A stretch of 64,000 bases of DNA. It comes from a virus. Each line of letters starts with the position of its first letter. Position 1 is the first letter of the stretch. The stretch covers positions 13,645 to 77,644 of IMG/VR virus record IMGVR_UViG_3300045996_001242. One strand, 5' to 3'. The notes under the pieces are model-generated. The model did not search any database, was not told the DNA's origin, and was given only the letters and a program-made list of their open reading frames with translations. The position numbers were made by a program, and so were the translations under genes. Shown piece after piece: positions 5,710 to 64,000 of this stretch.

Positions 5710-5720
5710 GGACCGCGGCC

Positions 5721-20100: not shown

Positions 20101-23100
20101 GTTGCTGAGCCTGAGACCCAGCCGGCTGAAACAGTTTCGCAGGTTTCGGAGCCAGTTGCTACCAAACCCGAAGAAACCGCTGACGCTACGCCAGCGGCGA
20201 TTGATGAGTTCGTGGATCCGCCGCCGTTCGTCGAGCCTACGATCGAGCAGCTGTTCCCGAACCTGGTTCAGCCCAAGGGCCGGAACTTCTTCCTCAAGGC
20301 CTTCCGCCTCCCGCAGGTACGGGCATCCCGTATCCTCGGCATGACGGCGCCGCTGCGTGAGTTCATCGGGGCCCTCTCGGATGGCGGCCGCCTGGTCGAG
20401 TGGCTGGGCGCCGATCGCAACGCCAACCTCAAGTATCGCGTGGATCCAGAGGACCGCGCCAACCTCGGCCAGCTGATGAAGATCGGCGTCGAGGTCCGCA
20501 CCCTGATGCGGGATCGCCTCTTCAAAGTGCTCACCAGCCAGGAGGAGAAGGGCAAGCCGACCTACGTCGAGATGCTGGCTTCCGGCCGGGAGATCAACCA
20601 GTGGCGCCGCTTCCGTGCCCTGAACATTTTCGAGAAAACCGAAAAGGGTTATCTCTATAATCAGTCCCTGGTCGAGGGGGCGATCCTCGCCGGCTTCGAC
20701 TGGCTCCTCAATGCCGCCGATCGCAGCGTGCCCATGACCCGGCAGGATGTGGCGCAGCTGCTCGGGATCGATGAGGACACGGTCACCGATGACCAGGTCA
20801 AGGCGCTCAATAACGGCCTCTCGCTCGACATGGCGGTGCGCTCGCTCGCTGACAACATCCGCAAGTTCTGGGGTGTCGAAGCCAACAAAGACATGCCCGA
20901 GGATTACGTACGCGGGATCCCGCAGGCTGTGGCGCTCGAGGTGCTGCACGCCTTCGCCGAGATCGAGGTCAACATCGGGGAGGAGTCCTCTCCGCTTCTC
21001 GAGCTCGGCATCAAGTTCAGCGACGACAACGACAAGCGTCTGGCCTTCCCCGACGTCACCCACAAGAAGTTCAACCGGGTCTACTTCGACAAGCGCTCCG
21101 ATGGCCTGAAGGAATACCTCCAGTCCCTCAACGGCGTCAGCAACCTGATCGCCGACATGGCGCTCATCGGGCGTGAGGTCGAGGGCTTCGCCTTCGAGCC
21201 GATCACTGAGGTCGACCAGGCCCAGTTGCGCAATCACCTGGTTCCGACCACGGCGCAGCAGAAGCAGGCCCTGGCCAATACCCAGGCAGCGCCGCACTAC
21301 CCGAACCTGCCGATGTTCGACTTCATCACGGCGATGGGCGAGGAAGCCTTCGTCACGCTGATGAGCAAGCGGCCCTACAAGAAGGGCGACCTCAAAAAGA
21401 CCCATCGCGATATGGGCCTCAACAAGAACCACTGGAGCTCGCTCCAGGGCCTGCAGCGCCAGCTCGCATCTTCGTTCGAGCATGTGGCCAAGCAGATGGC
21501 GCAGCTCCAGAAGCACGGCGCCGATGCCGCGGTCTACTACAAGCACCACGTCAACAAGCTCGGCCGCCTGCAGATGGCGGGCCTCAGCAATCCGCAGAGC
21601 GACAAGCTCGCTCGCGAGATCTTCATGCCGACCCGGACCAGGCTCGATCTTTCCAAGCCCGGGAACGGAGACTTCCTCAAGTTCCTGATGACGATCGGCC
21701 AGGGCATCGGCCTGAAGACCGAGAAGGAGCCCCGGCGGGCCATCCTCAAGAAGGTCGTCGAGTCGACGATGACCGACGATGGAGCGCTGCGTCCTCTGGT
21801 CCTGGCTCTCAAGACCTGGCTCGAGGCTCGTGCCGCCGGCCAGGATACGACGATCCCGGCAGCGACCACTGAGCTGCTGACGGCGGCCGGGCTCTCGATG
21901 CACGGCATCCACTCGCTCATCACCGTCGCCCGCTACGAGCTCGATCGCGATGCTGGTCGGGACCTGACCCAGTTCGAGACGATGACCTACCTCGAGGCCG
22001 ATGGCAAAACCAACGGCCCGATCAATTCGCTGATGCTCTACGGCAACGACGAGATCACTCCCACCTGGCTCAAGACCGTGGCCAAGGGCGGTGCCTTCTT
22101 CGGGAAGCTGGGCAAGACGCTCAACTCCCACACGGAAGATGGCGAGGCCTTCAAGGATCTCTACGAGGAAGGCGCGCTCGGCACCAACGATCGTGTAGCC
22201 GATCTCGGCCGTGCCATCCAGGCGAACGGCAACACCGCCGCCGGCGATCTCTTCAAGTCGTTCCAGCGGGTGCTGGCGGCGCTCGACGCCAACGTCGAGG
22301 TCGATCCCACGACCAAGGAGATCACCATCAAGCGTGGGATCACCAAGAACCCGCTGACGATCACCATCTATGGTTCCGGCGCCAAGGGCATCGCCGGCAA
22401 GATCACCGACGAGCTGCTCGCTGCAATGTACGAGGCGCTATCGGCCTCGACCGAGAAGGACAGCCCCCGGGCCGGTGAGCTCATCTACGAGGGCGTCGAA
22501 GGCGCCGACTTCACGTCGGACCTGCAGGCGCTTCTCTCGGGTGTGCTCCGCAAGAACAAGAAGGGCGAGTATTTCGTCGGCCGGGACAACGATCCCGATC
22601 TCAAGATCCGCGGCAATGCGCTCGACTTCACCCTGAGCCGCAAGCAGCGCGAGAACCTCCGGGCCAACATCCAGGCGATGCTGGTGAAGCCGATGCGTGA
22701 GGCGATCAACGAGACGGTCACGACGCACGTGAGCGCCGTCACGGACTCGATGCAGCAGGCGACGCAGATCCAGTCTGTGTTCCTGCGCGCCATGTTCATC
22801 GACAAGCTCACGCACCGGCTGGCCATGAAGCAGGCCAGCCCGGAGAAGTTCGGCTACATCAAGGGCGAGTTCCTCTCCCAGGCCGAGCTCGACGACATCA
22901 TCAAGAGCCTGATGCCGTTCTCGCCGGTCATGAGCACCGGCACCCAGAGCTACTTCCTTTCGGGTGGCGAGACGTCGAACCTGCTCTCCCGCGAGGAAGA
23001 GCAGGCGGACGGGACGACCAAGACGATCCACGTCAAGATCGAGATCGCCGGCCAGGAGTTCGAGGTCCCGATGCCGGAGACCTTCGCCCGCTCGCTGACT

Positions 23101-26100
23101 GACGACATGTCGACGCCGGCCTTCACCTATGGTCCGACCCAGGCCGGCGTTAAGGCGATCCCGACGATCGTCGTCGGCTCGGGCGATGGGCAGATGATGC
23201 TCAACCTCCTCGCCGATCATCCCGACGTCGCCAAGCGTGTCGAGCACGTCTTCGATGGTCTCGACATGCCGGCCGATGCGATCGACGACTATTCGCGCCT
23301 GGTGAACGAGGCGGTCTTCAAGACCTGGACCAGCAATGGCAACCCGGTCCGTGCCGCCTATGAAAGCTTCAAGACGTTCCTCGATCGCAATCCGATCGAT
23401 GGGCTCTTCGGTGAAGCCAGCAAGCTCAACGAATACCAGCAGCAGGCGATGCAGGATCTCGTCCGTGCTATGGGTCTTGACGAAGGCACCGAGGACACGC
23501 AGCTGGTGCAGGTCACCATGGACAGCCTGCTCGCCCGCATGAGCCAGCTGGCCGACGAGACCGATGCCCGGCGCCTCACGTATGCCGAGTTCCCGTTCTC
23601 CGTCGACCAGATGGCGAGCGCGGAATCCCCGTATGTGAACCAGGGTTCCATCACGATCGACGAGAACGCTACCTACGAGCAGATCGCCGATGCGATGAAC
23701 GAGCGGTATCGCTTCCACCTGGCTCAGATCCAGGCGGCCAGCAAGGATGCGCCGGCGCCCAATTCGATCCAGGAACAGGTGACTGCAGCGGCCGATGAGT
23801 TCGGCGTGCAGGTCATGCCGGCAACCGAGCTCGAGGACCTCTACAAGAAGCTCCGCGAAAAGCTCAACCCGACCCAGAAGGAGATGATGCGCCAGGCCGC
23901 CAAGCTCCTGAAGGACTCGGGGTATCGTCTCGGCTTCGGCACGAGCTCGCAGCTCGACGCCTGGGAACAGGCGAACAACGCTGATCGCTTCATCCCTGGC
24001 TCCAACAGCCACCGCGGCAAGATCGATCCGGTCTCGAAGCTGATCCTCATCTCGAGCATGGAAGCCGAGACGGTCATCCACGAGCTGGTCCACGCAGCTA
24101 CGATCGACAAGGTGCGGGCCTACTATGCCGATCCCAAGACGCTCGCTCCCGAAGAGCGGGATGCCGTCGTTCGCCTCGAGGGGCTGATGGAAGATTGGCT
24201 CGACCAGGATCCCGGCAAGGAGACTGCCGAAGGGCAGGATGCTCGCGCTCTGGCCGAGGCCGAGATCGCCAAGTGGCAGGACAAAGGCCGCAAGGCCGAA
24301 GCGCTCAACGAGTTCATGGCCTGGGTGCTCGGCAACCAGGACCTCGCCGAGCGGGCCCAGAAGATCAAGATCAAGAACCCGGTGCTGCGTGTCGTGAGCG
24401 AAGCGCTGGCGGCGCTGAAGTCGCTGCTCTGGGGCGCCAAGAACAAGGGTCCCCGTGTCGGTGACTCGCTGCTCTCGAACCTGCGCTTCAACACCCGCGT
24501 GCTGATGAACGGGCCGACCTCGATCGAGAGGCTCAAGGCGGACAGCGCCGCAGTGGCGCTCTACCAGTCGAGCTCGTTTGGCGACAATCCGCGGCTCACG
24601 GCGCTCCGCCAGAAGATCCACAATCGTGTCATCTCCTGGATCGACAGCGCTACCGATCCGCTCGCCAAGAGCCGCCGGCAGGTTGACACCTTCAACCAGG
24701 GTCTTCTCGCCGATCAGCTGACCGGTGAGTTCGCCTATCACTTCGAGGATCTCGGGACGCTGCAGGCCAAGGGCACGTTCTCGGAGATCCAGCTGATGCT
24801 GATGACCGAGGCCGAGCTCAACCCCAGTGCGCTTTCGCGCATGGAGGATCTCTATACGCACGTCATCGGGCAGCTGAAGTTCGAGGACTTCCTCGCCGAT
24901 CGCAATGCATCGCCGCGGGATCCCAACGACGAACGCCAGGCCCAGGACAAGCTCAAGGTGCTGCAGGGCAAGACGATGACCGTGACTGACAAGTCCGGCC
25001 GCTCCTCGCTGCTCTCTTCGTTCCTGGCTCTGGCGATGACCAGCGACCAGTTCCGCACCATCCTATCCGGCATCCAGAAGCCGGCGTCGGACAAGAGCGA
25101 TGCCAAGGGCTTCGATGCCGTGCTCGAGAACGCAGCGACCGCTGCGATCGACCGGCTCGGGATCCTGATGTCGGGGGAGAAGGGCAAGGACGGCAACGTC
25201 CGTGACGCCCTCGACCGGCTGATGTACGCCATGATCGAGAACGTGGGCGACCAGCGCACTCACATCGAGCGCAAGATCGAGCACGGCTTCGAGAAGATCG
25301 AGACGCTTGTCGCCGATCAGATCCAGGAGAAGAGCGCTCTCGTCGCCGAGAAGGCGAAGGACATTCGCGCCAATTCCAGGAGCCGCGTCGTCAAGGCCGG
25401 CGCTACCCTGGTTGGGTTCGTGGCCGACATGGTCAACGAGGAGAATGCCGCCGAAGCGCAGATGGGCATGGTCCACTGGCTCAACAAGCACAAGGGCTTT
25501 GAGAGCGTCCGGGCCCTGGTCAACGACGTCGTCGGCCGCACTCGCGAGAATGCGCCGGTCTTCGACATGATCTCCAAGGTCCGCGCCACCGTGCAGCAGG
25601 TCCGCCAGCAGTTCCGCGACGAGCTGCCGGTGAAGCTCAATCGCATGTTCGAGAAGCCTGTCTCGGAGGCGAAGTGGACGGCGATGTTCAAGACGCTGGG
25701 TCGGACCGACCTCGCTGCTCTGACCGGCGCCTATGGCGTCGACGGTGCGCTCGAGATGGTTTCCAACCAGCAGCGCCGGGAGACCGAGATCCGCACCCTC
25801 GAGGGCAAGTTCGATCCGCGCTTCCACGAGAAGGCCAAGCAGCTCGCCCACTTCATGGTGAGCGGTGAGCATGGCACGAAGCTCTTGCGCAATGCCTATG
25901 CGATCGCTGCCTTGACGATCCCCGGGATCAAGAACCTGAACCCCACTCAGGAGATGGTCGACGAGCTCGACCGCCTGGTGACGCTCTACGCTATCGAGGA
26001 GACCGACCAGGCCAGCAAGGATGCCGTCATCGAGCTGATGCGGGACGAGGAAGCCGGCGTCGAGTTCGTCACCAGCTACCTGATGGGCCAGCGAGTCGAT

Positions 26101-27912
26101 GAGCTCGCCAAGGTCGCAATGACGCCGGTGGCGAAGATCAACCACTACAAGGGCCATCTCCCCTCCGAGGCGCAGAAGGGCGGCTCGCTGATCATCGCTT
26201 CGGACACCGAGAACGCGACGCTCATCAGCCGCGGCTACACCCGGGTCATGGATTACGGCGGCTCCTCGGCCGATCGTCTCCTGGGCCGGCGTGGCTACTA
26301 TTTCGCGCCTGTCTCGGGCCGCGCTCCCTTCACGCAGGGTGTGCTGCAGACCGTCCATCAGACGGCCTCGGGTGTGGATCCGGAAACCGGATTTACGGTT
26401 GGCGAAGTCATGGCCGGGCGGATCGAGGATCCTCGTGAGATCCAGGTCATCGAGCGCTTGCTCCGCAACCAGAGCCAGACGAGCGAGAACCTCCTTCCCG
26501 TCTTCGACGACAAGGGCAGGATCGTCGCCTTCGAACGTGCGGCCGATCCCAGCCAGCTGCAGAAGCTCAACCGCTCGACGGACCTTGCGGCAATGATCGG
26601 CGTGTGGCGTGGTCGCCAGGCCGAGGAGCTGCTCGCCCAGGAGGTGAACAAGCAGCTGGTCGACAATCTCTACGAGATCTGGAAGCAGGGGGAGAGGGAA
26701 GGTCGCAAGGGTGAGTTCGTGAACATCGCGAAGCTCGATCCGCGCACCGACGATCGCGTGCTCATCGAGGCGGTCAACCTCATCCCGAACCAGGCAGCGT
26801 CCTACATCAAGTCGGTCTTCGGGCCTGATCGTTTCATGGTTCGCCGTGACATGCTGCTCGACACCTTCGGCGCCCGCCAGGCGTCGGTCGGGGATCTCTT
26901 CTCGGGGCATACCCGCTGGAGCCCCAAGATCGCCAGCGAGTTCGAGAAGTACGCTGCCGGCATCATGGGCAAGAAGGCCTACCCGATCCTCGTCGGCGGC
27001 GAGAAGAACATCCAGGAGCTGGTCTCGAACGTGAAGACCATGATCGTGGTGAAGTCGGTCATCGTGCCGGCGGCCAACATGGTCTCCAACATGTTCCAGC
27101 TTCTGGCTCGAGGTGTGCCGGTGCGTTCCATCATCCACGGCGTCGGCGCCAAGACGGCTGAGATCAGCACCTACGTGAAGCGTCGCCAGCAGGAGATCGA
27201 CCTCGAGGCGGATCTGCGTGCCGCTCGCGGCAAGGGTGACTTCATCGCCGAGCGTACGATCGAGGCGAAGATCCAGTCGATCCAGGACAGCTACAAGCGC
27301 ATGGCCATCTGGCCGCTCATCGAAGCCGGTGAGTTCTCGGCGATCTCCAATGGCCAGGTGACGGCCGAGGACCTGTCGCTCGCCAACGGCACCTGGACGG
27401 ACTGGGTCGAGCGCAAGGTGAACCAGCTCAGGGAGCCGCTACGAACGCCGGCGCGGTATGCGCTCATCACTCGCGACACCACTCTGTTCCAGGGCCTCGC
27501 TCGTGCGGTCCAGTACGGTGACTTCGTCGCCAAGGCGGTACTCTACGATGACCTGACCAAGCGCAAGAAGATGACTCAGAAGGACGCCATAGCCACGGTG
27601 AATGAGGCCTTCGTGAACTACAACCGGCTCGCCGGCCGCGGCCGTCAGTATCTCGAGAGCGTCGGCCTGCTCTGGTTCTACAACTACAAGCTTCGCATCC
27701 TCAAAGAGGCGGCCTATCAGCTGCGTCACAATCCGCTCCGTTCCCTGATGGCGGTCGCTGTCCCGGGCCTGCCGCTGATCGGCGACATCGGCACTCCGGT
27801 GACCGACAACATCCTGGCGTTGTTCAATGATGGGAAGCTCGGCTACTCGATCGGCCCCGGTATGGGCCTCGGCAGCTGGCAGCTCAACCCCTGGCTCAAC
27901 CTCGCCAGGTAA
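17161..27912 (+). CDS. Virion-encapsidated RNA polymerase (N4 gp50-like vRNAP)
   Basis: 3583 aa; T7-type motifs LEADGKTNGP (A), RGITKNPLTITIYGSG (B), VFDG (C); no Cys seen on reading. Confidence 0.95.
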   Translation: MADFNILDPSTWLPSQAPAAPTPANAVINGVEDPGLPLPGSVAAPAPAPAAPVQPQMSEADKLRADMLQINAALGDPDAMAALALSEQRGNGLTANNQLLNDFEGLTPVQFQQKYGVGTYRRLVTSRMRSREVVADANPDRDLTTTLSDIGIDALEGVNQTAYGVAAAAVQAGLGPGRPKDWLLEQISGLSADQTARTRRLESEELAEHRRYDSIRTALDDLDAKVASGADHADDSNFIDNLASYGRDYLRGAVDAGGRLIEDPTMAGALAAEGVGSLAVGGPLAKTLSTTARAAGLAGRGAAELSEEALTRAMFPGGIAAMEAGGAAMQAEQEVLAMTEGQLLESPNYRELLQNGYTPEEARARLATIAGSIASVPAALTGALTGKLVEGIELRPLRAAGPAGLAVNAGKETVEESIQSTVGQLASNTGVALSGADPDKDLGEGLGRATVEGAVAGAGTTLLTQGPGVALSTAAKSIGATITFPAKVIRGLGERNLAERAAASPVSAESMAPAVQTAAEQAPAVAETLRTVATEQGASGAEVDSYIESVQQASQIQQADAAMMPAILKAKLKEARDVLGRLPNRFEALHVAAVLAGDKSADQDDRTAAATFILKNIEANRKLFGELPTFLENIPSDRPEFKAFSDYAATLVAIDQEPAVRDAVKWAQEEMQQADRDLSAVDLKTPEGQTIVAQAVQMAAVAPQAVSPNVADQILHQAEKGTATLTPEQRRILAGASAMKKASATAAQELDEDPVQLVGRQIETEGGTKAHQMALVQHVAGINEAVEAGDTKTAQARINSLGMFARSMRNKVQAFNTAIQNGDRKRVPYQSLGRDGWLPKDEYFSVFFNPGSEASERLARRVHAEAAMIATVANEYARQFPELGIQEVAIPALRPMPAKAESAVEKNDKRGGATSEAAAPSQATTSRTEAAPKQSEPPLQPPAPTREPETAAPAVEPVASEDSTNQRQDDEQPAEPQVEVVAEPETQPAETVSQVSEPVATKPEETADATPAAIDEFVDPPPFVEPTIEQLFPNLVQPKGRNFFLKAFRLPQVRASRILGMTAPLREFIGALSDGGRLVEWLGADRNANLKYRVDPEDRANLGQLMKIGVEVRTLMRDRLFKVLTSQEEKGKPTYVEMLASGREINQWRRFRALNIFEKTEKGYLYNQSLVEGAILAGFDWLLNAADRSVPMTRQDVAQLLGIDEDTVTDDQVKALNNGLSLDMAVRSLADNIRKFWGVEANKDMPEDYVRGIPQAVALEVLHAFAEIEVNIGEESSPLLELGIKFSDDNDKRLAFPDVTHKKFNRVYFDKRSDGLKEYLQSLNGVSNLIADMALIGREVEGFAFEPITEVDQAQLRNHLVPTTAQQKQALANTQAAPHYPNLPMFDFITAMGEEAFVTLMSKRPYKKGDLKKTHRDMGLNKNHWSSLQGLQRQLASSFEHVAKQMAQLQKHGADAAVYYKHHVNKLGRLQMAGLSNPQSDKLAREIFMPTRTRLDLSKPGNGDFLKFLMTIGQGIGLKTEKEPRRAILKKVVESTMTDDGALRPLVLALKTWLEARAAGQDTTIPAATTELLTAAGLSMHGIHSLITVARYELDRDAGRDLTQFETMTYLEADGKTNGPINSLMLYGNDEITPTWLKTVAKGGAFFGKLGKTLNSHTEDGEAFKDLYEEGALGTNDRVADLGRAIQANGNTAAGDLFKSFQRVLAALDANVEVDPTTKEITIKRGITKNPLTITIYGSGAKGIAGKITDELLAAMYEALSASTEKDSPRAGELIYEGVEGADFTSDLQALLSGVLRKNKKGEYFVGRDNDPDLKIRGNALDFTLSRKQRENLRANIQAMLVKPMREAINETVTTHVSAVTDSMQQATQIQSVFLRAMFIDKLTHRLAMKQASPEKFGYIKGEFLSQAELDDIIKSLMPFSPVMSTGTQSYFLSGGETSNLLSREEEQADGTTKTIHVKIEIAGQEFEVPMPETFARSLTDDMSTPAFTYGPTQAGVKAIPTIVVGSGDGQMMLNLLADHPDVAKRVEHVFDGLDMPADAIDDYSRLVNEAVFKTWTSNGNPVRAAYESFKTFLDRNPIDGLFGEASKLNEYQQQAMQDLVRAMGLDEGTEDTQLVQVTMDSLLARMSQLADETDARRLTYAEFPFSVDQMASAESPYVNQGSITIDENATYEQIADAMNERYRFHLAQIQAASKDAPAPNSIQEQVTAAADEFGVQVMPATELEDLYKKLREKLNPTQKEMMRQAAKLLKDSGYRLGFGTSSQLDAWEQANNADRFIPGSNSHRGKIDPVSKLILISSMEAETVIHELVHAATIDKVRAYYADPKTLAPEERDAVVRLEGLMEDWLDQDPGKETAEGQDARALAEAEIAKWQDKGRKAEALNEFMAWVLGNQDLAERAQKIKIKNPVLRVVSEALAALKSLLWGAKNKGPRVGDSLLSNLRFNTRVLMNGPTSIERLKADSAAVALYQSSSFGDNPRLTALRQKIHNRVISWIDSATDPLAKSRRQVDTFNQGLLADQLTGEFAYHFEDLGTLQAKGTFSEIQLMLMTEAELNPSALSRMEDLYTHVIGQLKFEDFLADRNASPRDPNDERQAQDKLKVLQGKTMTVTDKSGRSSLLSSFLALAMTSDQFRTILSGIQKPASDKSDAKGFDAVLENAATAAIDRLGILMSGEKGKDGNVRDALDRLMYAMIENVGDQRTHIERKIEHGFEKIETLVADQIQEKSALVAEKAKDIRANSRSRVVKAGATLVGFVADMVNEENAAEAQMGMVHWLNKHKGFESVRALVNDVVGRTRENAPVFDMISKVRATVQQVRQQFRDELPVKLNRMFEKPVSEAKWTAMFKTLGRTDLAALTGAYGVDGALEMVSNQQRRETEIRTLEGKFDPRFHEKAKQLAHFMVSGEHGTKLLRNAYAIAALTIPGIKNLNPTQEMVDELDRLVTLYAIEETDQASKDAVIELMRDEEAGVEFVTSYLMGQRVDELAKVAMTPVAKINHYKGHLPSEAQKGGSLIIASDTENATLISRGYTRVMDYGGSSADRLLGRRGYYFAPVSGRAPFTQGVLQTVHQTASGVDPETGFTVGEVMAGRIEDPREIQVIERLLRNQSQTSENLLPVFDDKGRIVAFERAADPSQLQKLNRSTDLAAMIGVWRGRQAEELLAQEVNKQLVDNLYEIWKQGEREGRKGEFVNIAKLDPRTDDRVLIEAVNLIPNQAASYIKSVFGPDRFMVRRDMLLDTFGARQASVGDLFSGHTRWSPKIASEFEKYAAGIMGKKAYPILVGGEKNIQELVSNVKTMIVVKSVIVPAANMVSNMFQLLARGVPVRSIIHGVGAKTAEISTYVKRRQQEIDLEADLRAARGKGDFIAERTIEAKIQSIQDSYKRMAIWPLIEAGEFSAISNGQVTAEDLSLANGTWTDWVERKVNQLREPLRTPARYALITRDTTLFQGLARAVQYGDFVAKAVLYDDLTKRKKMTQKDAIATVNEAFVNYNRLAGRGRQYLESVGLLWFYNYKLRILKEAAYQLRHNPLRSLMAVAVPGLPLIGDIGTPVTDNILALFNDGKLGYSIGPGMGLGSWQLNPWLNLAR

Positions 27913-45364: not shown

Positions 45365-46575
45365 TCGTGTAGGTGGACGATGGTCCCGTGCGGCACTTCG
45401 GCCTTCCGGTTATTGAGGGCGACCCAGATGATCGGGACGTGCGCCAGGTCCGCGGGAAGCGGGTGCATGGGATCGCACTGCAGGTCCGAGAAGATGACGA
45501 CAGCGGTCGGCTTGTGCTCGATGATGTGCTCGCGCACGCAGACCAGCGAGGTGCCGCCGCGGCCGACGATCTTCACCTCGTCGACTTCGTCCTCCTCGAG
45601 GAAGACGTCTTCCTTCTGGATCTGCTCGTCGAACTGGACCATCGTCATCTTCTTCGGCTTGAAGTAGTCGTGGACGTACTTGAATTCCGAGTTGAATCTG
45701 ATGGCGTCGCCGTCCGAGATCGAGCCGGAGACGTCCTCATAGTAGATGACGTGGTCGAGGCCGTTGTACTCTTCCATGAGGTCCGGCAGGTACATGTCCT
45801 GGTAGCGCCGGTTGGGGCGGGCCCAGCTGTAGTCGTGGCCGCCCAGCTCGTTGAAGAACTGGAAGAGCGCCTTGTCCCAGTCGATCTTGGGAGCAAGGAA
45901 GCGCTTCAGCGTCGTCTCGATCTCTCCGGGGATGCTGCCGCCGGCGAGCTGTGCCTGGTGGGCGGCCGAGATGACGTTGTTGAGGACCTGATGCTGCAGC
46001 GCGGCTGCGACGTCGACCTCATCTGGCTCCACGAGGTCGCCGACAAGATCGCCGAGTCCGGTCTCCGGGTTGGTCAGCCAGGGAGTTGACCAGGGCATGG
46101 CGGGGGCATTGCCCTGGCCTTGGGCCTGGTGTTTGGCGATGAGCTCGTCGCGGATCCTGACGATGTCGTCATAGACGTCCTCGGTGACCCAGCCCTCGTA
46201 GTCGAAGTTGAACCAGGGCTTGAAGCCTTTGAAGCTCTTGCCCTCGCGGATCAGTGTGTTGTTGATCAGGATGTCGGCCGCGTAGTTCCAGATCTCATGC
46301 TCCCTGGATCCACAGCGCAGCATGTCAAGCCGCGCTGGGTGCCAGAGCTCATGGAGGAGGATGGTCTCGCGGACCTCCGGCAGCAGCGAGAGGAAGAACC
46401 GAGGGTTCCACCAGAGCGTCACGCCGTTGGTGCAGGCCGTCTGTATGTCCTCGACCCAGGAGAAGTTCATCGAGCACATCAGCGGGCCGAGGAAGGCGGC
46501 GTTGCTGTTGAGGAACACCTTGGTCTTGGTGCGGTCGAACTCACGTTCGAGCAGCGTGTAGTCGATCTCGGTCAT
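45361..46575 (-). CDS. Metallopeptidase plus vWA domain protein (N4 gp25-like)
   Basis: TACTNG, HELWH (HExxH), WNYAADILIN, DVSGS MIDAS, GRGGT, FSDL. Confidence 0.85.
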   Translation of the reverse strand: MTEIDYTLLEREFDRTKTKVFLNSNAAFLGPLMCSMNFSWVEDIQTACTNGVTLWWNPRFFLSLLPEVRETILLHELWHPARLDMLRCGSREHEIWNYAADILINNTLIREGKSFKGFKPWFNFDYEGWVTEDVYDDIVRIRDELIAKHQAQGQGNAPAMPWSTPWLTNPETGLGDLVGDLVEPDEVDVAAALQHQVLNNVISAAHQAQLAGGSIPGEIETTLKRFLAPKIDWDKALFQFFNELGGHDYSWARPNRRYQDMYLPDLMEEYNGLDHVIYYEDVSGSISDGDAIRFNSEFKYVHDYFKPKKMTMVQFDEQIQKEDVFLEEDEVDEVKIVGRGGTSLVCVREHIIEHKPTAVVIFSDLQCDPMHPLPADLAHVPIIWVALNNRKAEVPHGTIVHLHE

Positions 46576-48014
46576 TTCCTGTCCTTCTTCTTGAGCCAGG
46601 GCTTATGACCCTCGCCCGCCATGATGGTGCCGGCCGGGATGACCTCGTCGACGATGGTGGCGAGATCGAACTTCGTGATCTGGCGACGCACCTCATCGGG
46701 CCGCTTGTAGGCACTGGGCAGCTCCGAGATGTCGGGCTTGCCGCAGTAGAAGCGGACGTCGAGGCCCTGCGTCTCACGGTCGATGATCGTCTGCAGGTCT
46801 CGTGGCGAGATCCCTCGTGCGTCGGACGGGAACTCCTCGAGCAGGCGCTTCATGTGCGCGGTGCGCGAGAGGTTCCTGCCGGCGCCGTGTGGTGCGAAGC
46901 CCAGACCGTCGATCGGTCGGCGATCGTTCGGCATGGTGATCAGGATCGGCTGCCCCATGTTCAGTGGGATCAGCATCTGCCCGCAATCGTCATTGGCGTA
47001 GCCGTAGTAGGACGGCGTCGAGCCCTTGGCATGATAGAAGAGCCCGTCGGCCCGTCTGAAGACGAAGTTGTGCTCGTTCCAGAAGCGGCCGACGATGGCG
47101 TTGCCAAGTCGCTGCTGCATGGCGTCGTGGATCGCGTAGTGGTTGAGCTTGGTCCACTCGCGGACCAGCTGCAGGGCTTCCCAGTAGTCGTGGCCTTCCT
47201 GCGAGTTGGCATCGATCCAGGCTGCTGCCTTGGGCGTCCGTGGCGAGACGATCGAGGTGTGCTTCTCGGCCACAGCTTTACCACGGCGATAGACCTCGGC
47301 GCCGAAGCCTCGAGATCCATGGTGGGTGACGATCGCCAGCTGTCCGGTCGACTTGAGGTGGCCCACGAAAAAGAAGTGGTTGCCATCGCCCTGGGTCATA
47401 AATTGGCCAATGGCACGGTCCTCGAGCCCGGCAGTGAAGCGGTTTTCTGGCAGGCGGTCGATCAGCCCGGCGAACTGGGTGTCCCGGCCGTAGGCGGCCA
47501 ACTGCTGCCGCGGCTGGTTGCCGAAGTGCGTCGTCTGCATGGCGACGTCGAGGACCCGGCTGACGTCCATGTCCCGCTTGAAGACGGTGATGGCCATCGA
47601 GCAGCAGGCGTCCTCGGAGTGGAAGCCCGGATGGATCGCGTCTTTGGTTGCAACCACACCACCAACCGGGATGACGCCGGCAGCCGGACAGGCATCCGGC
47701 ATGACGGCGGCGTGCATCACGGTGGGGGTGCGGACGAGCTCGTCCATCTGCCGGACGACGCCGGCGTAGTTGACCACCTCGTCGTCGGTCTCGGCCTCGA
47801 GGAAGATGCCGAAGGGGATCGAGTTGGTGCGCAGCTGCAGCGCAGGGTCGAGTTCAGGCTCGCGAGGCTTGTAGTTGTTGGAGATGAACTCGCGGATCTC
47901 GTCGAGGGGGTACTTCCCCAAGACAGTGTTGCCGAATTCGATCGCCTCTTTGAACCAGGGGCCAGGCTTGAAGCCCCAGGCGATGAGCGTCTCGCCGGTG
48001 ATCTTATCGGTCAT
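46572..48014 (-). CDS. rtcB: RtcB family RNA ligase
   Basis: MPDAC, DACCSM, GDGNHF, HHGSRG, EHNF, HAKG, PHGAGR, ELPSAYK. Confidence 0.9.
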   Translation of the reverse strand: MTDKITGETLIAWGFKPGPWFKEAIEFGNTVLGKYPLDEIREFISNNYKPREPELDPALQLRTNSIPFGIFLEAETDDEVVNYAGVVRQMDELVRTPTVMHAAVMPDACPAAGVIPVGGVVATKDAIHPGFHSEDACCSMAITVFKRDMDVSRVLDVAMQTTHFGNQPRQQLAAYGRDTQFAGLIDRLPENRFTAGLEDRAIGQFMTQGDGNHFFFVGHLKSTGQLAIVTHHGSRGFGAEVYRRGKAVAEKHTSIVSPRTPKAAAWIDANSQEGHDYWEALQLVREWTKLNHYAIHDAMQQRLGNAIVGRFWNEHNFVFRRADGLFYHAKGSTPSYYGYANDDCGQMLIPLNMGQPILITMPNDRRPIDGLGFAPHGAGRNLSRTAHMKRLLEEFPSDARGISPRDLQTIIDRETQGLDVRFYCGKPDISELPSAYKRPDEVRRQITKFDLATIVDEVIPAGTIMAGEGHKPWLKKKDRK

Positions 48015-48232
48015 TGGGTTTCCTCTTTGATGACGGCCTCGACCTTGGCGATGGCAGCCTCGAGCGTGTCGAAGGTGCCCATCTGCGGGTTCACGGGCAG
48101 CCCAGCGTGATCGTTGACGATGAACCGTCCGTGGTAGACCTGGATGCTCAGGTGCGGGTGTTCGACGCACTGGTAGGTATCGTCGACCGAGTCATCCTCG
48201 GCGGGGGTGAAGACGTAGGTCGGCCGACTCAT
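48011..48232 (-). CDS. Hypothetical protein
   Basis: ATGA overlaps on both sides. Confidence 0.55.
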   Translation of the reverse strand: MSRPTYVFTPAEDDSVDDTYQCVEHPHLSIQVYHGRFIVNDHAGLPVNPQMGTFDTLEAAIAKVEAVIKEETQ

Positions 48233-51264: not shown

Positions 51265-51316
51265 TGTGGTAGCTCAGTCTGTGGTTGGGCTAGTTCGGGT
51301 TACGTTCTGGGGGGTC

Positions 51317-51524
51317 TTCCCCACACGTTCCCCACATGAAATAGCGTGAACGAATCGCGATTATGAACGACTATCGTTCACAAAAAACCCTGAGTATCCG
51401 GGCGTTTCAAGGGAACCCCCACCGCTCATAACGGTCTGGTTGCAGGTTCGAGTCCTGCCGGGCCCACCAATCTTTTCAATCACTTAGTACCCCCATTGGT
51501 TTTCTTCCCACAAGTTTCCCCACA
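51317..51524 (+). repeat. Integrase arm-type direct repeats flanking the att core
   Basis: TTCCCCACA at 51317 and 51328; TTCCCACA at 51505 and TTCCCCACA at 51516; 11-bp spacing within each pair. Confidence 0.7.
51421..51469 (+). mobile_element. attP core: 3' half of a tRNA with CAT anticodon (probably tRNA-Ile2)
   Basis: ACCG-CTCATAA-CGGT anticodon arm, GCAGG-TTCGAGT-CCTGC T arm, CGGGCCC-A-CCA end; no 5' half upstream; adjacent to the integrase 3' end. Confidence 0.88.
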
Positions 51525-51526
51525 GT

Positions 51527-52675
51527 TTAGGCCGCTTTTTTAGGCCTAAAACCACGGGCAGCATTTTTCTGGAAATCTGGATGATGGTGGCCGTAAACGT
51601 CCTCCAGCACCTTCTGACTCATGCCGAGAAAACCGGCTGCCTCGTACATCGGGACGCCGTTGAGCATGAGCCAGGTTGCAGCCGTATGGCGCAGGGTGTG
51701 CGGCGTCGCATGCTCGAGGCCGGCCCCTTCGATGGCTGATGCGAAAGCGGTCTTCACGGAGGCGACAGGTTCACCGTTCCACTCGATGAAGAATTCGGGG
51801 ACCCGACCATCGGCATCGGGGCGAGCCCAGCGACGAAGAAACCCAAGCAAATGAGACGGCAGTCTCACCGGCGGCTGGCGCTTGTTGGTCTCCTTCTTGC
51901 CGACCTTGCGGCGATGAAAGACGCCATGCTCGAGATCGACCCAGGCGCGGTCCTTCTCGCGCTTCGGAGACGCAGCTGCGATAGCGGCGGCACGAGTGCC
52001 GGTATAGAGCCCGAGCAGGATGAAGCGAGCCAGGTGGCGAAGCGGCCGACGCTTGGTCGGGAACACCTCGCCGCGATGCGGTCCGCGGGTGATGGTCATC
52101 ATCTCGCGCTTCCGCCAGCAGTACCAGAGGAGCTGCGCTGCCTCGTCGCGAGTGAACCAGCGATCGCGAGCTTCGCCCTTGTCGGGTAGGTGGACGAAGA
52201 CGACGCCTTTGTGGAGGCCCTTCTTGGCGTGATGGATGATGGCGGCACGCAGGACCTCGAGATCCCGCCTGGCACCGCCAGGCGAGCCCCGGGACTTGGT
52301 GTACGCATAACAACTATCACCGTCGACCTCGGAGAGGGTCTTGCTCCCCCACCATTCGTTGATCCGTTTGAGTGAGCCCTGGTAGACACGCTGGTTCGCG
52401 TGCTTGGCACCCTTGTCTTCGTCGTAGATGAGCAACACATCGGCAATCGGAAGCTTCTCTATGTCCTGCTCGCGACGAGGAGCTCGGTATTGCGTCGTGA
52501 GGTACTCGGCGAGCTTGAGCTGCGCTGCGCCAATCTCAACCTCAGCGCATCCTGTGGGGTGGCGCTTGTCGCCGTCGATGATGATCCAGGTGCCGCTCTC
52601 TTTGAGCTTGCCGGTGGCTGGGTCTCGACGTTCCTTCCGGAACCAGAGATGCGGTCCTTTGCTTTTGCGCGGCAT
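51527..52675 (-). CDS. int: Tyrosine recombinase/integrase
   Basis: LYTGTR (R), KKETNKR (K), HTLRHTAATWL (H-x-x-R), FLGMS...VYGHH (Y). Confidence 0.93.
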   Translation of the reverse strand: MPRKSKGPHLWFRKERRDPATGKLKESGTWIIIDGDKRHPTGCAEVEIGAAQLKLAEYLTTQYRAPRREQDIEKLPIADVLLIYDEDKGAKHANQRVYQGSLKRINEWWGSKTLSEVDGDSCYAYTKSRGSPGGARRDLEVLRAAIIHHAKKGLHKGVVFVHLPDKGEARDRWFTRDEAAQLLWYCWRKREMMTITRGPHRGEVFPTKRRPLRHLARFILLGLYTGTRAAAIAAASPKREKDRAWVDLEHGVFHRRKVGKKETNKRQPPVRLPSHLLGFLRRWARPDADGRVPEFFIEWNGEPVASVKTAFASAIEGAGLEHATPHTLRHTAATWLMLNGVPMYEAAGFLGMSQKVLEDVYGHHHPDFQKNAARGFRPKKAA

Positions 52676-52869
52676 AGATCCCTCATTGCCTGGATCGCGC
52701 GGAGCGTGGTGAAGTGCTTGCCCGCGGTCAGTTCGACAGCAAGGTTGCCCCTGCTGATCTCGCGACGCAAGCCGCTCACTGTCATGCCGCCTAGAGGGTA
52801 CGCTAGTCTGAGGGCGTCCTCGAGCCGCAGCGGGTCATCGAGGCCGATACTGGGAGAACACGTGTTCAC
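52459..52869 (-). CDS. Excisionase-like HTH protein overlapping the integrase 5' end
   Basis: PLRLEDALRLAYPLGGMTVSGLRREISRGNL...GKHFTTLRAIQAMRDLC; GTG start overlaps the upstream TGA. Confidence 0.7.
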   Translation of the reverse strand: MNTCSPSIGLDDPLRLEDALRLAYPLGGMTVSGLRREISRGNLAVELTAGKHFTTLRAIQAMRDLCRAKAKDRISGSGRNVETQPPASSKRAAPGSSSTATSATPQDALRLRLAQRSSSSPSTSRRNTELLVASRT

Positions 52870-53075
52870 GCTGCCTCGAATGATGAGAGAGTGGCTTCGA
52901 GGAGATCGAGGGCGGCTTCTTCGAGGATGAGGATCTCGGCGTGGCAGACGAGGGCCTGCCAGAAGCGTTTTCCGGAGATTCTTTGGTTCGGCCGCAGGCC
53001 ACAACGTTCCATCACCTCTGGCGGGAATTCGAACTCGACTCCCTTACGGAAAACAGTTTGCAGCGTCATGGTCAT
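52866..53075 (-). CDS. Hypothetical protein in lysogeny module
   Basis: 69 aa; GGAG-type RBS absent but coupled to the xis-like gene. Confidence 0.45.
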   Translation of the reverse strand: MTMTLQTVFRKGVEFEFPPEVMERCGLRPNQRISGKRFWQALVCHAEILILEEAALDLLEATLSSFEAA

Positions 53076-53208
53076 GAGAGGCTCATTATTGAAGGGAGGG
53101 TCACAATATCGTTTGGTAGAGGTGACTATGGGAAGCCGTATATCCGGCTCCCTAGGGGGCGCAAATTACCACTTATCCATTTTGGATAGATTTAATGGAA
53201 CTTTTTCG

Positions 53209-53664
53209 TTATCCGTTTAAGTGGTTCAACTTATTGAGCTCGCGGGTGGCCTTGCGCAGGGCCCGGTCGATCTCCGAATAGGCCTGGGAGATGGTGGGGT
53301 CCTCTTCGCCGCCATGGTTCGGCCGCAGCACGACACGCTTGCCTTTGGCCTCGGCCAGGATGAACTCGCGCTTCCTAAGCCGCTGCAGGTAACGATGACT
53401 TGATGCGAACGGGAGCGCGGCCGTTTCGGCGACGCTGCTGATGTCCATCGGCTTGCCTTCAAGCTGCCCGAGTCGGACGGCCATCGCCGCAATCACCTCC
53501 TCATAGGAGAGATCGGCCTCTTTTGCGGCCTTGCTGATGGCACGGCGAATTTCCATGAAGGTGCGGATCGCTATGAGGCGGCGCTGGGGATCCCGTGAGC
53601 CGGGCATGGTGTTGGTCCTTGCAAGAGTGGCTGATGCTGATTGCAACTCGTGAGTTGCGTTCAT
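53209..53664 (-). CDS. Winged-helix (MarR/IclR-like) regulator, repressor candidate
   Basis: GKPMDISSVAETAALPFASSHRYLQRLRKREFI wHTH. Confidence 0.65.
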   Translation of the reverse strand: MNATHELQSASATLARTNTMPGSRDPQRRLIAIRTFMEIRRAISKAAKEADLSYEEVIAAMAVRLGQLEGKPMDISSVAETAALPFASSHRYLQRLRKREFILAEAKGKRVVLRPNHGGEEDPTISQAYSEIDRALRKATRELNKLNHLNG

Positions 53665-53831
53665 GGTTCGTATTTCTCGTTAAATTCATCAAACTCTGGA
53701 TGCAATTCCCTTGCCCGTAAGGCTTTTTGCTTACGGACCAAGGTCCGATGGGCAACAGCCACGGCTGCGAACAAGAGCGCGCCGAGCACAATCGCCGCAA
53801 TTACGGCGAGGGCGGGAGTAACGATGGGCAT
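53661..53831 (-). CDS. 56-aa single-pass membrane protein
   Basis: Translated by hand (MPIVTPALAVIAAIVLGALLFAAVAVAHRTLVRK...); GAGGAGG RBS; ATGA overlap with the wHTH gene. Confidence 0.6.
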   Translation of the reverse strand: MPIVTPALAVIAAIVLGALLFAAVAVAHRTLVRKQKALRARELHPEFDEFNEKYEP

Positions 53832-55000: not shown

Positions 55001-56203
55001 TTAGGAGAGAGCGTAGTTGGCCTGGCGAATGTCGTTTGCCAGGGAAGGATCGAGCTTGTTCGCCGTCACCGGCCGGCGGCAGATCTGGCTGACCAGGTAG
55101 CCGAGCAGGCTCGATTCTGCGATCTCCGCCAGCAGGTTGTTGTACTGCCGGCGAAGGTCATTGCCATAGTTGGGGAGAACCCGGAAGCAGTCGTGGATCG
55201 TGATGACCTCGAACGGCTTCTTGGGGAGGCTGTTGATCAGCTCCTGGATCACGCGCCATTCGACGAGGCCCAGGTTGAGGTTGTCGAGGTAGTTGAGGAT
55301 CCGGGCCGAGAGGAAGCCCGAATTCTGGTAGTGGCCCCAGAGGGTCAGCACCATTTCGTCCTGGGGACGCTTGACCAGCCTCCCGAACTGCTTGTTCAGG
55401 GCCCAGGTGGAGAGCTGGGCGATGTGCTTGGGGTCGTAGTTGCAGCGCCACTGCATCTCGCGAACCACCATGCCGTCGATCGAGTGGACCATGTTGGCGC
55501 CGAGCGACCTGCCGCCCTTGATGGGCTTGTTGACGTGGTAGGTCACCTCGAAGGGCTCGTTGAGGAAGTGGACGGTCTCGGAGGCCTCGCCCATGACCTT
55601 GATCCGGACATGGAAGTTGTCCGGCAGGACCCAGGAGTTCTCGAGCGCCTTCTCGTCCCAGATGGCGAGCATGGTCTTGTTGATCTCCCAGGCACCGGGA
55701 GCGTTCTGCTCGACGGTGTCGTAGAAGACCTGCAGGAGATCGCCCTCGCCGAAGACGCGCTTGGGCACTGCGGTCGAGCTGTAGAAGGCTGTCATGATCG
55801 CCTGTTTGGTGAGCTTGCGATCGATCTTGGCGGTGCCTCCGAGCTGGTTCACCATGTCCTGGTAGATCGAGACGTAGGCGTCTTCCCGCTTGCCGGTGTC
55901 GACGACGTTGCAGATCTCGGCCGCCTTACGATCGCAGGCGAGGGCGGCGAGGATCTGGATGCCCGAGCAGGTGGCATCGAGGGAGATGGGGTAGCCCGAT
56001 GGCTTGTCGGCCTTGGCCTTCTCCCAGGCAAGAACGCCGGCGTAGAAGAGAGCTGGCTCCTCGGCCTGCGACACGAGATCGTGCAGCTGATGTTCGTTGG
56101 CGTCGAACCAGGCGATGCGAGCGTCCCAGTTGGCCTTGTCGAAGCCGAAGGAGCTCGCGATGTCGATCTTGAGATACTCTTTGCCCGTGAAAGTCTGAAA
56201 CAT
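55001..56203 (-). CDS. RNA polymerase II subunit 2 (N4 gp16-like)
   Basis: YLKIDIAS, LDATCSGIQIL, KQAIMTAFY, ANMVHSIDG, IHDCF. Confidence 0.93.
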   Translation of the reverse strand: MFQTFTGKEYLKIDIASSFGFDKANWDARIAWFDANEHQLHDLVSQAEEPALFYAGVLAWEKAKADKPSGYPISLDATCSGIQILAALACDRKAAEICNVVDTGKREDAYVSIYQDMVNQLGGTAKIDRKLTKQAIMTAFYSSTAVPKRVFGEGDLLQVFYDTVEQNAPGAWEINKTMLAIWDEKALENSWVLPDNFHVRIKVMGEASETVHFLNEPFEVTYHVNKPIKGGRSLGANMVHSIDGMVVREMQWRCNYDPKHIAQLSTWALNKQFGRLVKRPQDEMVLTLWGHYQNSGFLSARILNYLDNLNLGLVEWRVIQELINSLPKKPFEVITIHDCFRVLPNYGNDLRRQYNNLLAEIAESSLLGYLVSQICRRPVTANKLDPSLANDIRQANYALS

Positions 56204-63012: not shown

Positions 63013-63450
63013 TTAGCTGGCGGCGACGAGATCGTCCTCCGGCTCTTCGGCGAGCAGCGAACGAGCGTCGATGACGAACTCGTTCTCGTCCCGGCTGACC
63101 TCGACCGGCGTATGGACGCGGCGCAGACGGACCTCGAGGTTGAGCGTGCGCTCCTCACCCGGCTGGAACTTGAAGCCCAGCTTCTGGAGGGCGGCGAGCA
63201 GCTCGTTCTCGGCCGCAACCTGCTTGGCGAACTCAGGGTTCTGGCCACGCATCTCACGCGGATACATGGTGTCGATGCCCTGGCCGAGCGGCAGCTTGAT
63301 GAAGGTCCCGTTGACGGTCCGGCCGACATCCAGCCACAGCTGGCTCTTCGGCTTGTCGCCATTCGGGGTATTCTGGCCGGCGAACGGCGTGCTGCGACGG
63401 CCGTTCTGGGGCTGGGTATTCTGCTGGTTGAAGTCGATCGTAACGCCCAT
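63013..63450 (-). CDS. N4 gp2-like ssDNA-binding RNAPII activator
   Basis: KSQLWLDVG...FIKLPLGQGIDTM...LQKLGFKFQPGEE..LEVRLRRV. Confidence 0.75.
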   Translation of the reverse strand: MGVTIDFNQQNTQPQNGRRSTPFAGQNTPNGDKPKSQLWLDVGRTVNGTFIKLPLGQGIDTMYPREMRGQNPEFAKQVAAENELLAALQKLGFKFQPGEERTLNLEVRLRRVHTPVEVSRDENEFVIDARSLLAEEPEDDLVAAS

Positions 63451-63524
63451 GGTGTGGTAGCTCCTGTGGTGGCGTGTTGGATGGATCTGAGGCGTCGAAG
63501 CGCCCCAGCAAAGCGAATTGTGGG

Positions 63525-63829
63525 TTAGCCGTGGACTAGGCGCCGAAGACGGGCTTGGCGTTCTTTGCGACGGCGGTTGTTCCAACGCTCACGTTTAGCG
63601 TCGGCGTTGATGTAGCTCACGATCCCGATGACGGCCGCGGTGAGGACGCAGCCGATCAGGAACGCAGTGAAGGTCCAGACGAAGAGGACTGGAACATCGG
63701 CGATGATGCTCATGATGCCTGGTTCTCCTGGATCTGGGCCAGCACTGCGTCGCCGACCCATACCGCCGAAGCGATGATGCCGAGCGAGAGTGCAAGTGCG
63801 ACAAGGATGTAGCGCAGGTTACCAGACAT
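63525..63829 (-). CDS. Two small early membrane proteins (63525-63713, 63710-63829)
   Basis: Hydrophobic segments and ATGA overlap. Confidence 0.45.
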
Positions 63830-64000
63830 GGCCTGCGTCCCTGATCTGGCGATCGTCGTCCACGAGCTCGAGGCCGTGGAAGTCGTTGAGCTCATCAGCC
63901 CGGAACGCGTCCCAGTCCTCTTCGAGGATGAGCTCGTCGGGATCAGAGACAACGGCGACCTCGGACACGGCGGCAACAAGCGCTGCGATTGCGATAGAGC

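Follow-up and report, generated by a model that had tools for sequence, protein, structure and literature searches.

A 16-3-type integration cassette and tRNA-Ile2 attachment site in the genome of an N4-like soil phage

The 64,000-nt stretch analysed here (the window, bases 13645-77644 of the 77,644-bp IMG/VR virus record IMGVR_UViG_3300045996_001242, which CheckV rates as complete) belongs to an N4-like phage, and carries within its early-to-middle gene array a cassette for site-specific integration. This cassette comprises a phage attachment site (attP), a tyrosine integrase gene (int), an excisionase-like gene (xis), a small open reading frame (ORF) called orf69, and a regulator gene. Positions are those of the window unless stated otherwise.

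The attachment site and the recombination genes

The attachment site and the genes next to it are arranged as follows:
51315-51336, plus strand: P arm, TTCCCCACA twice in direct orientation at a spacing of 11 bp, putative sites for arm-type binding of the integrase
51346-51383: P-arm inverted repeats GTGAACGA / TCGTTCAC and TTATGAACGA / TCGTTCACAA, possibly a site for an accessory protein
51421-51469, plus strand: attP core, 49 bp that genome matches show to be identical with a host tRNA-Ile2(CAU) in its 3' portion, anticodon stem through CCA
51470-51487, plus strand: P'-proximal box ATCTTTTCAATCACTTAG, of a type (AT-N5-TCAAT-N2-CTTA) conserved beside the tRNA in integrated relatives
51503-51524, plus strand: P' arm, a degenerate TTCCCACAA and a TTCCCCACA as direct repeats just before the 3' end of int
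51527-52675, minus strand: tyrosine integrase (Int), 382 aa, of the phage 16-3 Int family by Pfam, phrog and alignment
52459-52872, minus strand: excisionase homologue (Xis), 137 aa, with a GTG start at 52872 that overlaps the orf69 stop
52866-53075, minus strand: orf69, the first gene of the orf69-xis-int string

The attP core consists of ACCG followed by 45 nt that run from CTCATAA through CCA (51425-51469). It is not a whole tRNA, since ARAGORN finds no tRNA gene in the window. In a collection of species-representative genomes the 45-mer occurs exactly at more than 120 loci, all of them alphaproteobacterial except for a few contigs of metagenome-assembled genomes (MAGs) that are labelled otherwise; the holders include Bradyrhizobium, Methylobacterium, Microvirga, Devosiaceae, Rhodospirillaceae and Phenylobacterium. 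Among 401 sampled genomes of the order that contains the Devosiaceae, 153 have the core with at most 3 mismatches and about twenty have it exactly. In the matching genomes a 76-nt tRNA gene with the anticodon CAT ends in the 45-mer, and where the anticodon stem of the host reads GACCG the identity grows to 49 of 49 bp.

To appreciate which CAT tRNA this is, we note that a complete Bradyrhizobium genome holds three kinds: the initiator (with its C1xA72 mismatch), a 77-nt elongator methionine tRNA, and the one matching the core. Aligned end to end, the last agrees at 80% of positions with an E. coli gene whose anticodon is likewise CAT and which is tRNA-Ile in the RefSeq annotation. By this three-way comparison the predicted target is tRNA-Ile2(CAU) and not a methionine tRNA, in agreement with a reading of the DNA made from its letters alone (hereafter the sequence-only reading), which had proposed both the 49-bp tRNA 3'-half core and its tRNA-Ile2 identity. 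An initial E. coli 'tRNA-Ile' match was set aside, being the rrn-spacer tRNA-Ile that is followed by tRNA-Ala rather than the CAT-anticodon Ile2 type. Rfam gave no meaningful match; a sub-threshold hit to the plastid ycf2-leader (22.5 bits, E 0.25) coincides with the core but is on the other strand.

The exact TTCCCCACA repeat occurs three times in the window, at 51317, 51328 and 51516, all within 208 bp around the core. Together with a degenerate copy at 51505, from which one base is deleted, these make up the paired arm repeats that had been noticed on both sides of the core. Related loci likewise have a pair of direct repeats on the P' arm, spaced by about 11 bp and lying just ahead of the 3' end of int, but of other sequences (CCGCACCAGA, CGCCCCAG, GCGGGCAGATA); arm-type sites that change along with their integrase are expected to look like this. 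The first 11 nt of the P'-proximal box are identical in a remnant island of a Devosiaceae MAG (L099) and in a viral contig (L149).

The integrase matches PF00589 (E 2.5e-8; 34.3 bits against a cut-off of 27.1) and phrog_1 (E 2.4e-30). When it is aligned with fifteen relatives, the Int proteins of phages 16-3 and phi3LM21 among them, residues R228, K265, H326, R329 and Y361 prove invariant, so that the claim of an intact tyrosine integrase stands. The xis gene overlaps int with its 3' third, by 217 nt and in a different frame. Its product is 38% identical over 123 aa (E 7e-21) to the annotated 140-aa excisionase of phage 16-3, which bears out its earlier description as xis-like. For orf69, family and homologue searches came back empty and a fold search gave no convincing lead; a weak 35-aa match lies at the same position in an integrase-less relative (L313, IMGVR_UViG_3300013132_000173).

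The closest characterised counterpart that we compared is the site-specific recombination system of rhizobiophage 16-3 (NC_011103), reportedly the subject of Semsey et al. 1999 (J Bacteriol 181:4185). Its integrase is 37% identical to the one described here, its xis overlaps int by 226 nt, and its mapped attP lies directly after int with a tRNA-derived core on the opposite strand. With the gene overlap, the attP position, the tRNA core and the arm repeats all found here, the cassette is, as far as its layout tells, built like the int-xis-attP module of 16-3. The phages themselves differ: 16-3 is a 60-kb, non-N4-like temperate phage whose record gives no classification below Caudoviricetes, its target is tRNA-Pro(CGG) and it has repressors of its own, whereas here the target is tRNA-Ile2(CAU) and the backbone that of an N4-like podovirus.

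Backbone, integrated relatives and the cassette slot

The identification of the virus as N4-like, made earlier from the DNA alone, is supported throughout the window. A 3583-aa ORF (17161-27912) matches phrog_2206, 'virion RNA polymerase' (vRNAP), over its whole length with 2292 bits. The RNA polymerase (RNAP) subunits RNAP1 and RNAP2, the major capsid protein, the portal, the DNA polymerase and the primase match N4-type families, phrog_2166, phrog_2051, phrog_1357 and phrog_1216 among them. RNAP2 (55001-56203, minus strand) is the match to phrog_2051. Gene content of this kind (vRNAP, RNAP1/2, and an N4-type capsid and portal) places the backbone beyond doubt among the N4-like phages (Schitoviridae). 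From the right end of the window the early and middle genes, which are on the minus strand, are read leftwards, and the late genes, that for vRNAP among them, are read rightwards. A gene for an RtcB RNA ligase (46572-48170) sits between the gp24-like ATPase gene and the vWA gene, which in L313 and in the Mesorhizobium proviruses described below are adjacent or nearly so.

The first 1120 bp of the record and its last 709 bp (record positions 76936-77644, window positions 63292-64000) repeat one another at 96-97% identity if a 404-bp indel is set aside. IMG/VR labels the record 'linear', and direct terminal repeats are seen only as this imperfect redundancy of 709 versus 1120 bp; the redundancy implies that the contig either closes on itself or ends in terminal repeats. 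The 404-bp insertion in one copy could reflect two variants in the sample or an uneven terminal repeat. Host DNA is absent at both ends. The left flank of the core is phage sequence, and the site is thus in the attP state; phage genes on both sides, the redundant ends and the absence of host flanks agree with the un-integrated form that the sequence-only reading had recognised.

Integrases related to this one (45-58% identity), together with a Xis homologue, are found at many genomic, metagenomic and proviral loci, and a Xis homologue accompanies 132 of the 157 related integrase loci. At 17 of the 119 loci with enough flanking sequence, int is followed at a distance of 64-120 bp by an exact tRNA-Ile2 3' end on the other strand, the arrangement also seen in this phage. 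In several cases the 5' half of the tRNA comes before the core. These are loci in Bradyrhizobium (L061, L082, L096), in MAGs of Nitrobacter (L062) and of an alphaproteobacterium (L017), and in two viral records (L125, L134). With the whole tRNA present, each is the attL (left prophage junction) of an integrated element.

Further traces of such elements at tRNA-Ile2 were noticed along the way. The Devosiaceae MAG (L099:65-1063) has a 925-bp remnant island between a tRNA-Ile2 gene and a 35-nt repeat of the tRNA 3' end, with a single small ORF on the opposite strand, and its first 11 nt after the tRNA are those of the P' arm of the phage. Bradyrhizobium sp. WSM3983 (L040) has a tRNA-Ile2 gene and two further partial copies of the core within about 5.3 kb, and in IMGVR_UViG_3300048599_000870 (L135) two related integrases face one core; both look like tandem or decayed islands.

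We did not find N4-like genes near any of about 190 related integrase loci. A metagenome scan with the integrase gave, among the matches listed, identities of at most 57%, none with backbone genes nearby; scans of viral contigs with the single integrase or with its alignment gave only non-N4 proviruses, at up to 59% identity; and among the phages of GenBank none of the N4-like ones gave a match to this Int. Five large viral records also contain the tRNA core, but they are not N4-like. The nearest integrases (P0002-P0013), 68-73% identical, are on metagenome contigs. One of them (P0011, 68%) shares its contig statistics (JGI, 4 contigs, the longest 28,685 bp) with an RNAP2 match of 76% identity (P0167), and P0005 (integrase) and P0183 (RNAP2) likewise share theirs (19,840 bp). 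These coincidences suggest that other N4-like phages may carry the same cassette.

Searching with the RNAP2 protein revealed relatives, 66-73% identical, on large Mesorhizobium contigs at NCBI, one of them a 6.46-Mb chromosome. Two sister records (G683, IMGVR_UViG_2881155292_000002, and G684, 2706794523_000001) are classed by IMG/VR as proviruses, 99-100% complete. Their capsid proteins are 81-85% and their RNAP2 proteins 71-73% identical to those of the phage described here, and exactly the same RNAP2 proteins are encoded by Mesorhizobium sp. M4B.F.Ca.ET.058.02.1.1 (the 6.46-Mb contig) and LSJC255A00. The maps of these sister proviruses start with the gp24-like ATPase block and close with RNAP2 and the Ig-domain protein, after which come a few small ORFs and, last, a small ORF with a tyrosine integrase, and the ends of the virion genome are joined inside the prophage map. 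The sister maps are therefore opened, between the integrase and the gp24-like ATPase block, at exactly the position where attP lies in our phage. Since these sister phages are integrated in Mesorhizobium, the rhizobial N4-like lineage is truly temperate. The proviruses belong to the same lineage and have their integrase and a small upstream ORF in the same slot, after RNAP2 and the Ig-domain (Big2) gene; they differ in lacking both the MarR-like regulator gene and its neighbour orf56, and the trimmed records do not show their attachment site.

The closest cultured relatives are ort11 (Huelvavirus) and other rhizobial N4-like phages. They share the gene order RNAP1, RNAP2, small ORF, Ig-domain protein and gp24-like ATPase, and the RNAP2 of Sinorhizobium phage ort11 is 64% identical, but they have no integrase; in ort11 only two small genes (gp041 and gp042) stand at the position of the cassette. 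In L313 the Big2 gene, an orf69-like ORF, orf80, orf93 and the ATPase gene follow one another directly and the cassette is absent. Because the sister phages carry an unrelated integrase there, and L313 and ort11 carry none, the slot downstream of RNAP2 is, as seen in these gene maps, a hot spot for the exchange of unrelated integration cassettes.

Other observations were made at this slot and its borders. In a 68.5-kb record (L267:11590-17500, IMGVR_UViG_3300020213_000030), two tail-fibre-like ORFs of 595 and 1227 aa, with matches to Phage_Tail_Tip and the Peptidase_S74 chaperone, lie directly after RNAP2 in the early/middle region; the slot is a hot spot for cargo as well. Both sister loci (L268:11200-16440 and L269:11200-14056) have a conserved 211-aa ORF after the Ig-domain gene. 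The RNAP2 match of L313 (L313:4907-6428) falls into two pieces (4907-5335 and 5637-6428) separated by about 300 bp; possible causes are an intron, intein, insertion or frameshift.

Integrase-bearing N4-like viruses as such are not new, contrary to what the sequence-only reading had implied; the first report of them dates from 2023. Zheng et al. (2023, mSystems 8:e00197-23, PMC10654107) mined IMG/VR and reported 54 integrase-bearing N4-like genomes and 40 integrated proviral regions, mostly in Moraxella, and concluded that some N4-like viruses are lysogenic and gained their integrases horizontally. The phage described here resembles that set in being an N4-like backbone that carries a lysogeny hallmark gene. 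The consulted passages of that paper present a survey without dissection of attachment sites, whereas here the attP core, the arm sites, the tRNA-Ile2 target, Xis, the MarR-like regulator and the tie to Mesorhizobium are described. The present case contributes the dissected tRNA-Ile2 attP, the 16-3-type cassette, the exchange of cassettes at one slot, and the named Mesorhizobium sister lysogens.

The regulator and the lysogeny switch

Upstream of the recombination genes lie the following features:
53076-53208: AT-rich intergenic region, candidate operator/promoter of orf69-xis-int, with a perfect palindrome TATCCA-TTT-TGGATA at 53174-53188 and further TTATCC half-sites
53209-53664, minus strand: MarR-fold winged-helix regulator, 132 aa from the M at 53607 or 151 aa from the ATG at 53664
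53661-53831, minus strand: orf56, a small protein with one hydrophobic segment
53832-54010, minus strand: intergenic region with an intrinsic terminator, then GGATA-N5-GGATAAT repeats upstream of orf56

The ATG of the regulator at 53664 overlaps the stop of orf56. No Pfam model matched the protein at E 0.05. Its AlphaFold2 (AF2) model has a mean confidence (pLDDT) of 94 and shows a MarR fold, with N- and C-terminal dimerisation helices flanking a winged helix-turn-helix (HTH), which upholds its earlier description as a winged-HTH regulator; Foldseek matches it over its full length to SarZ, MarR, OhrR and MexR with TM scores of 0.55-0.66. The family is small: the homologues are about 130 aa long and begin at residue 20 of the regulator, and out of 30 of them 28 match HTH_IclR and 20 match MarR_2. 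On three proviral contigs such homologues are part of the immunity region and adjoin XRE-type and S24-type regulators or an integrase. A scan for further loci with the single protein as query found nothing, and the 30-sequence alignment was too divergent to use.

A strong intrinsic terminator (53985-53952) ends the RNAP2-orf121-Big2 transcript and, as predicted from the DNA, insulates the cassette from transcription of the RNAP2 operon. Of the 11 TTATCC/GGATAA sites in the whole genome, 3 lie in the two AT-rich intergenic regions of the cassette, one of them within the 53174-53188 palindrome. These sites, the palindrome included, are likely operators of the MarR-like protein. Scanned with the sigma-70 consensus, neither the cassette nor the early region proved enriched in promoters of this type. 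GATAAT occurs 22 times in the whole record against 5.9 expected and may be a phage promoter or operator motif, and TTATC-N2-3-GATAA palindromes stand at five places (54589 and 4065, and three left of the window).

A classical repressor was sought genome-wide. Peptidase_S24 (PF00717) has no match in the whole 77.6-kb genome, with positive controls detected, in line with the earlier statement that a CI/LexA-type repressor is absent. Only two HTH_3-like ORFs are present in the genome, both below threshold. One of them, the 'Cro-like' orf80, is also present in the integrase-less L313 and is therefore a backbone gene. From the switch parts proposed in the sequence-only reading, then, the winged-HTH protein is retained as a member of the cassette, and the others lie outside it. 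Our literature search found that the induction of N4-like prophages was not addressed.

Lifestyle of the phage and alternative explanations

Taken together, we consider it quite probable that the record is the free (attP) form of a complete N4-like soil phage with a working-looking integration cassette of the 16-3 type. Every element of the complete integration module listed by the sequence-only reading is present, and the cassette looks intact. The anatomy of the cassette, its homology to a characterised Int/Xis pair, the tRNA use of related integrases and the integrated sister phages are shown here; the recombination activity of this copy, the target of the regulator, the host genus, and the upkeep and end of lysogeny are inferred.

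We propose that the linear genome would circularise through its terminal redundancy, and that Int would bind the paired arm repeats and the core and recombine attP with the tRNA-Ile2(CAU) gene of the host. The tRNA would stay intact at attL, because the phage supplies an identical 3' part. Xis would direct excision, and the MarR-fold protein would most likely control the orf69-xis-int string through the TATCCA-N3-TGGATA palindrome. Integration at this attP would cut the leftward early-to-middle array between the RNAP2 block and the replication block, so that int, xis and orf69 would lie at one prophage end together with the RNAP2 block and the gene for the MarR-like protein, and the stretch from orf80 through the replication genes at the other.

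Several observations weigh against this interpretation. The search for this phage in integrated form, or for its type of integrase integrated with an N4 backbone, yielded nothing, and RNAP2 searches of 243 Devosiaceae genomes and of the 401 sampled genomes of that order were negative. The sister phages use an integrase unrelated to this one beyond its fold (BLASTP E 0.46); they therefore prove the lifestyle of the lineage and not the activity of this cassette. The claim that the phage is temperate accordingly holds for its lineage, through the integrated Mesorhizobium sisters, and lacks an integrated copy of the phage itself. The host genus is not fixed, as the exact core is spread over several families. 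The fifth active-site position of the integrase, usually His or Trp, is Met352, and Met is found in all 16 members of the alignment, including 16-3 Int. Its closest relatives (68-73%) are known only from metagenome contigs. Finally, the cassette has a lower G+C content at third codon positions (GC3, 0.67-0.74) than the backbone (0.8-0.9) and is therefore a recent import.

RNAP2 was also not found in 44 genomes of another family. In four Devosiaceae genomes (L173-L176), ORFs of 600-876 aa weakly match the RNAP2 query (E 1e-5 to 5e-7); these are probably single-subunit phage-type RNA polymerases of other prophages.

Two checks that the sequence-only reading had named gave no support. One was for reads spanning attL or attR (the two prophage junctions): in the soil sequencing run X1, where the phage is present at about 2-4x and in short contigs, and in X2, where it is less, there was no attL/attR junction and no contig bridging the core. 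Loose ends of read contigs at 51421 and 51469 are tRNAs of other organisms. The other was for integrated copies, and none was retrieved for this phage; the sisters that are integrated have another integrase.

The alternative that survives best, which we regard as improbable, is that the cassette is a recently captured passenger that does not work in this phage, and that the virus is a lytic N4-like phage. The codon composition of the cassette, its absence from L313 and from cultured relatives such as ort11, the failure to find a lysogen in the genomes searched, and the absence of a recognisable classical repressor from the genome would all fit such a passenger. Yet all of its frames are intact with the catalytic residues kept, its core is a perfect 49-bp copy of the host tRNA end, neither arm has lost its repeats, xis shows translational coupling and the same kind of overlap with int as in the functional 16-3 system, and sister phages do lysogenise.

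An assembly chimera, in which a fragment of an unrelated temperate phage or host island was joined to the backbone at a shared tRNA-like sequence, is a very improbable explanation. The record is metagenomic, run X1 covers the phage only about 2-4x, and no listed contig bridges the core, which draws many foreign tRNA contigs. But such a chimera would need two junctions, and one tRNA-like sequence is present; the backbone order is as expected on both sides, the cassette stands in the slot where the sisters have their own integrase, and the paired P0011/P0167 and P0005/P0183 statistics point, by inference, to the same combination in other samples. Slightly less probable still is that the recombinase serves another purpose, resolving replication dimers or mobilising the cassette alone: tyrosine recombinases also act as resolvases and the cassette behaves as a swappable unit within the lineage, but 16-3 and other integrative phages have just such an attP design, a tRNA 3' end with arm repeats and a Xis homologue, members of the integrase family occur integrated next to the tRNA, and the cassette has one att site and not two.

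The question arises how a prophage would be kept silent. A tentative and rather doubtful suggestion is that lysogeny in this lineage is kept without a classical immunity repressor, and that a prophage without the injected vRNAP, which normally sets the cascade going, is silent largely by default. We judge this as a whole, that is, the attP cut of the early-to-middle array, default silence, a MarR-like protein gating only int and xis, and a bootstrap by the host RNAP taken jointly. If it were true, induction would need a bootstrap of the RNAPII or vRNAP genes that is driven by the host RNAP.

N4-like phages are favoured for phage therapy and biocontrol on the assumption that they are strictly lytic. 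Each well-documented temperate N4-like lineage weakens that assumption. The Mesorhizobium strains M4B.F.Ca.ET.058.02.1.1 and LSJC255A00 are culturable and carry the sister prophages, and they offer a practical system for studying how a phage that injects its polymerase is silenced in, and restarted from, a chromosome. Such lysogens would make the idea of silence by default directly testable.

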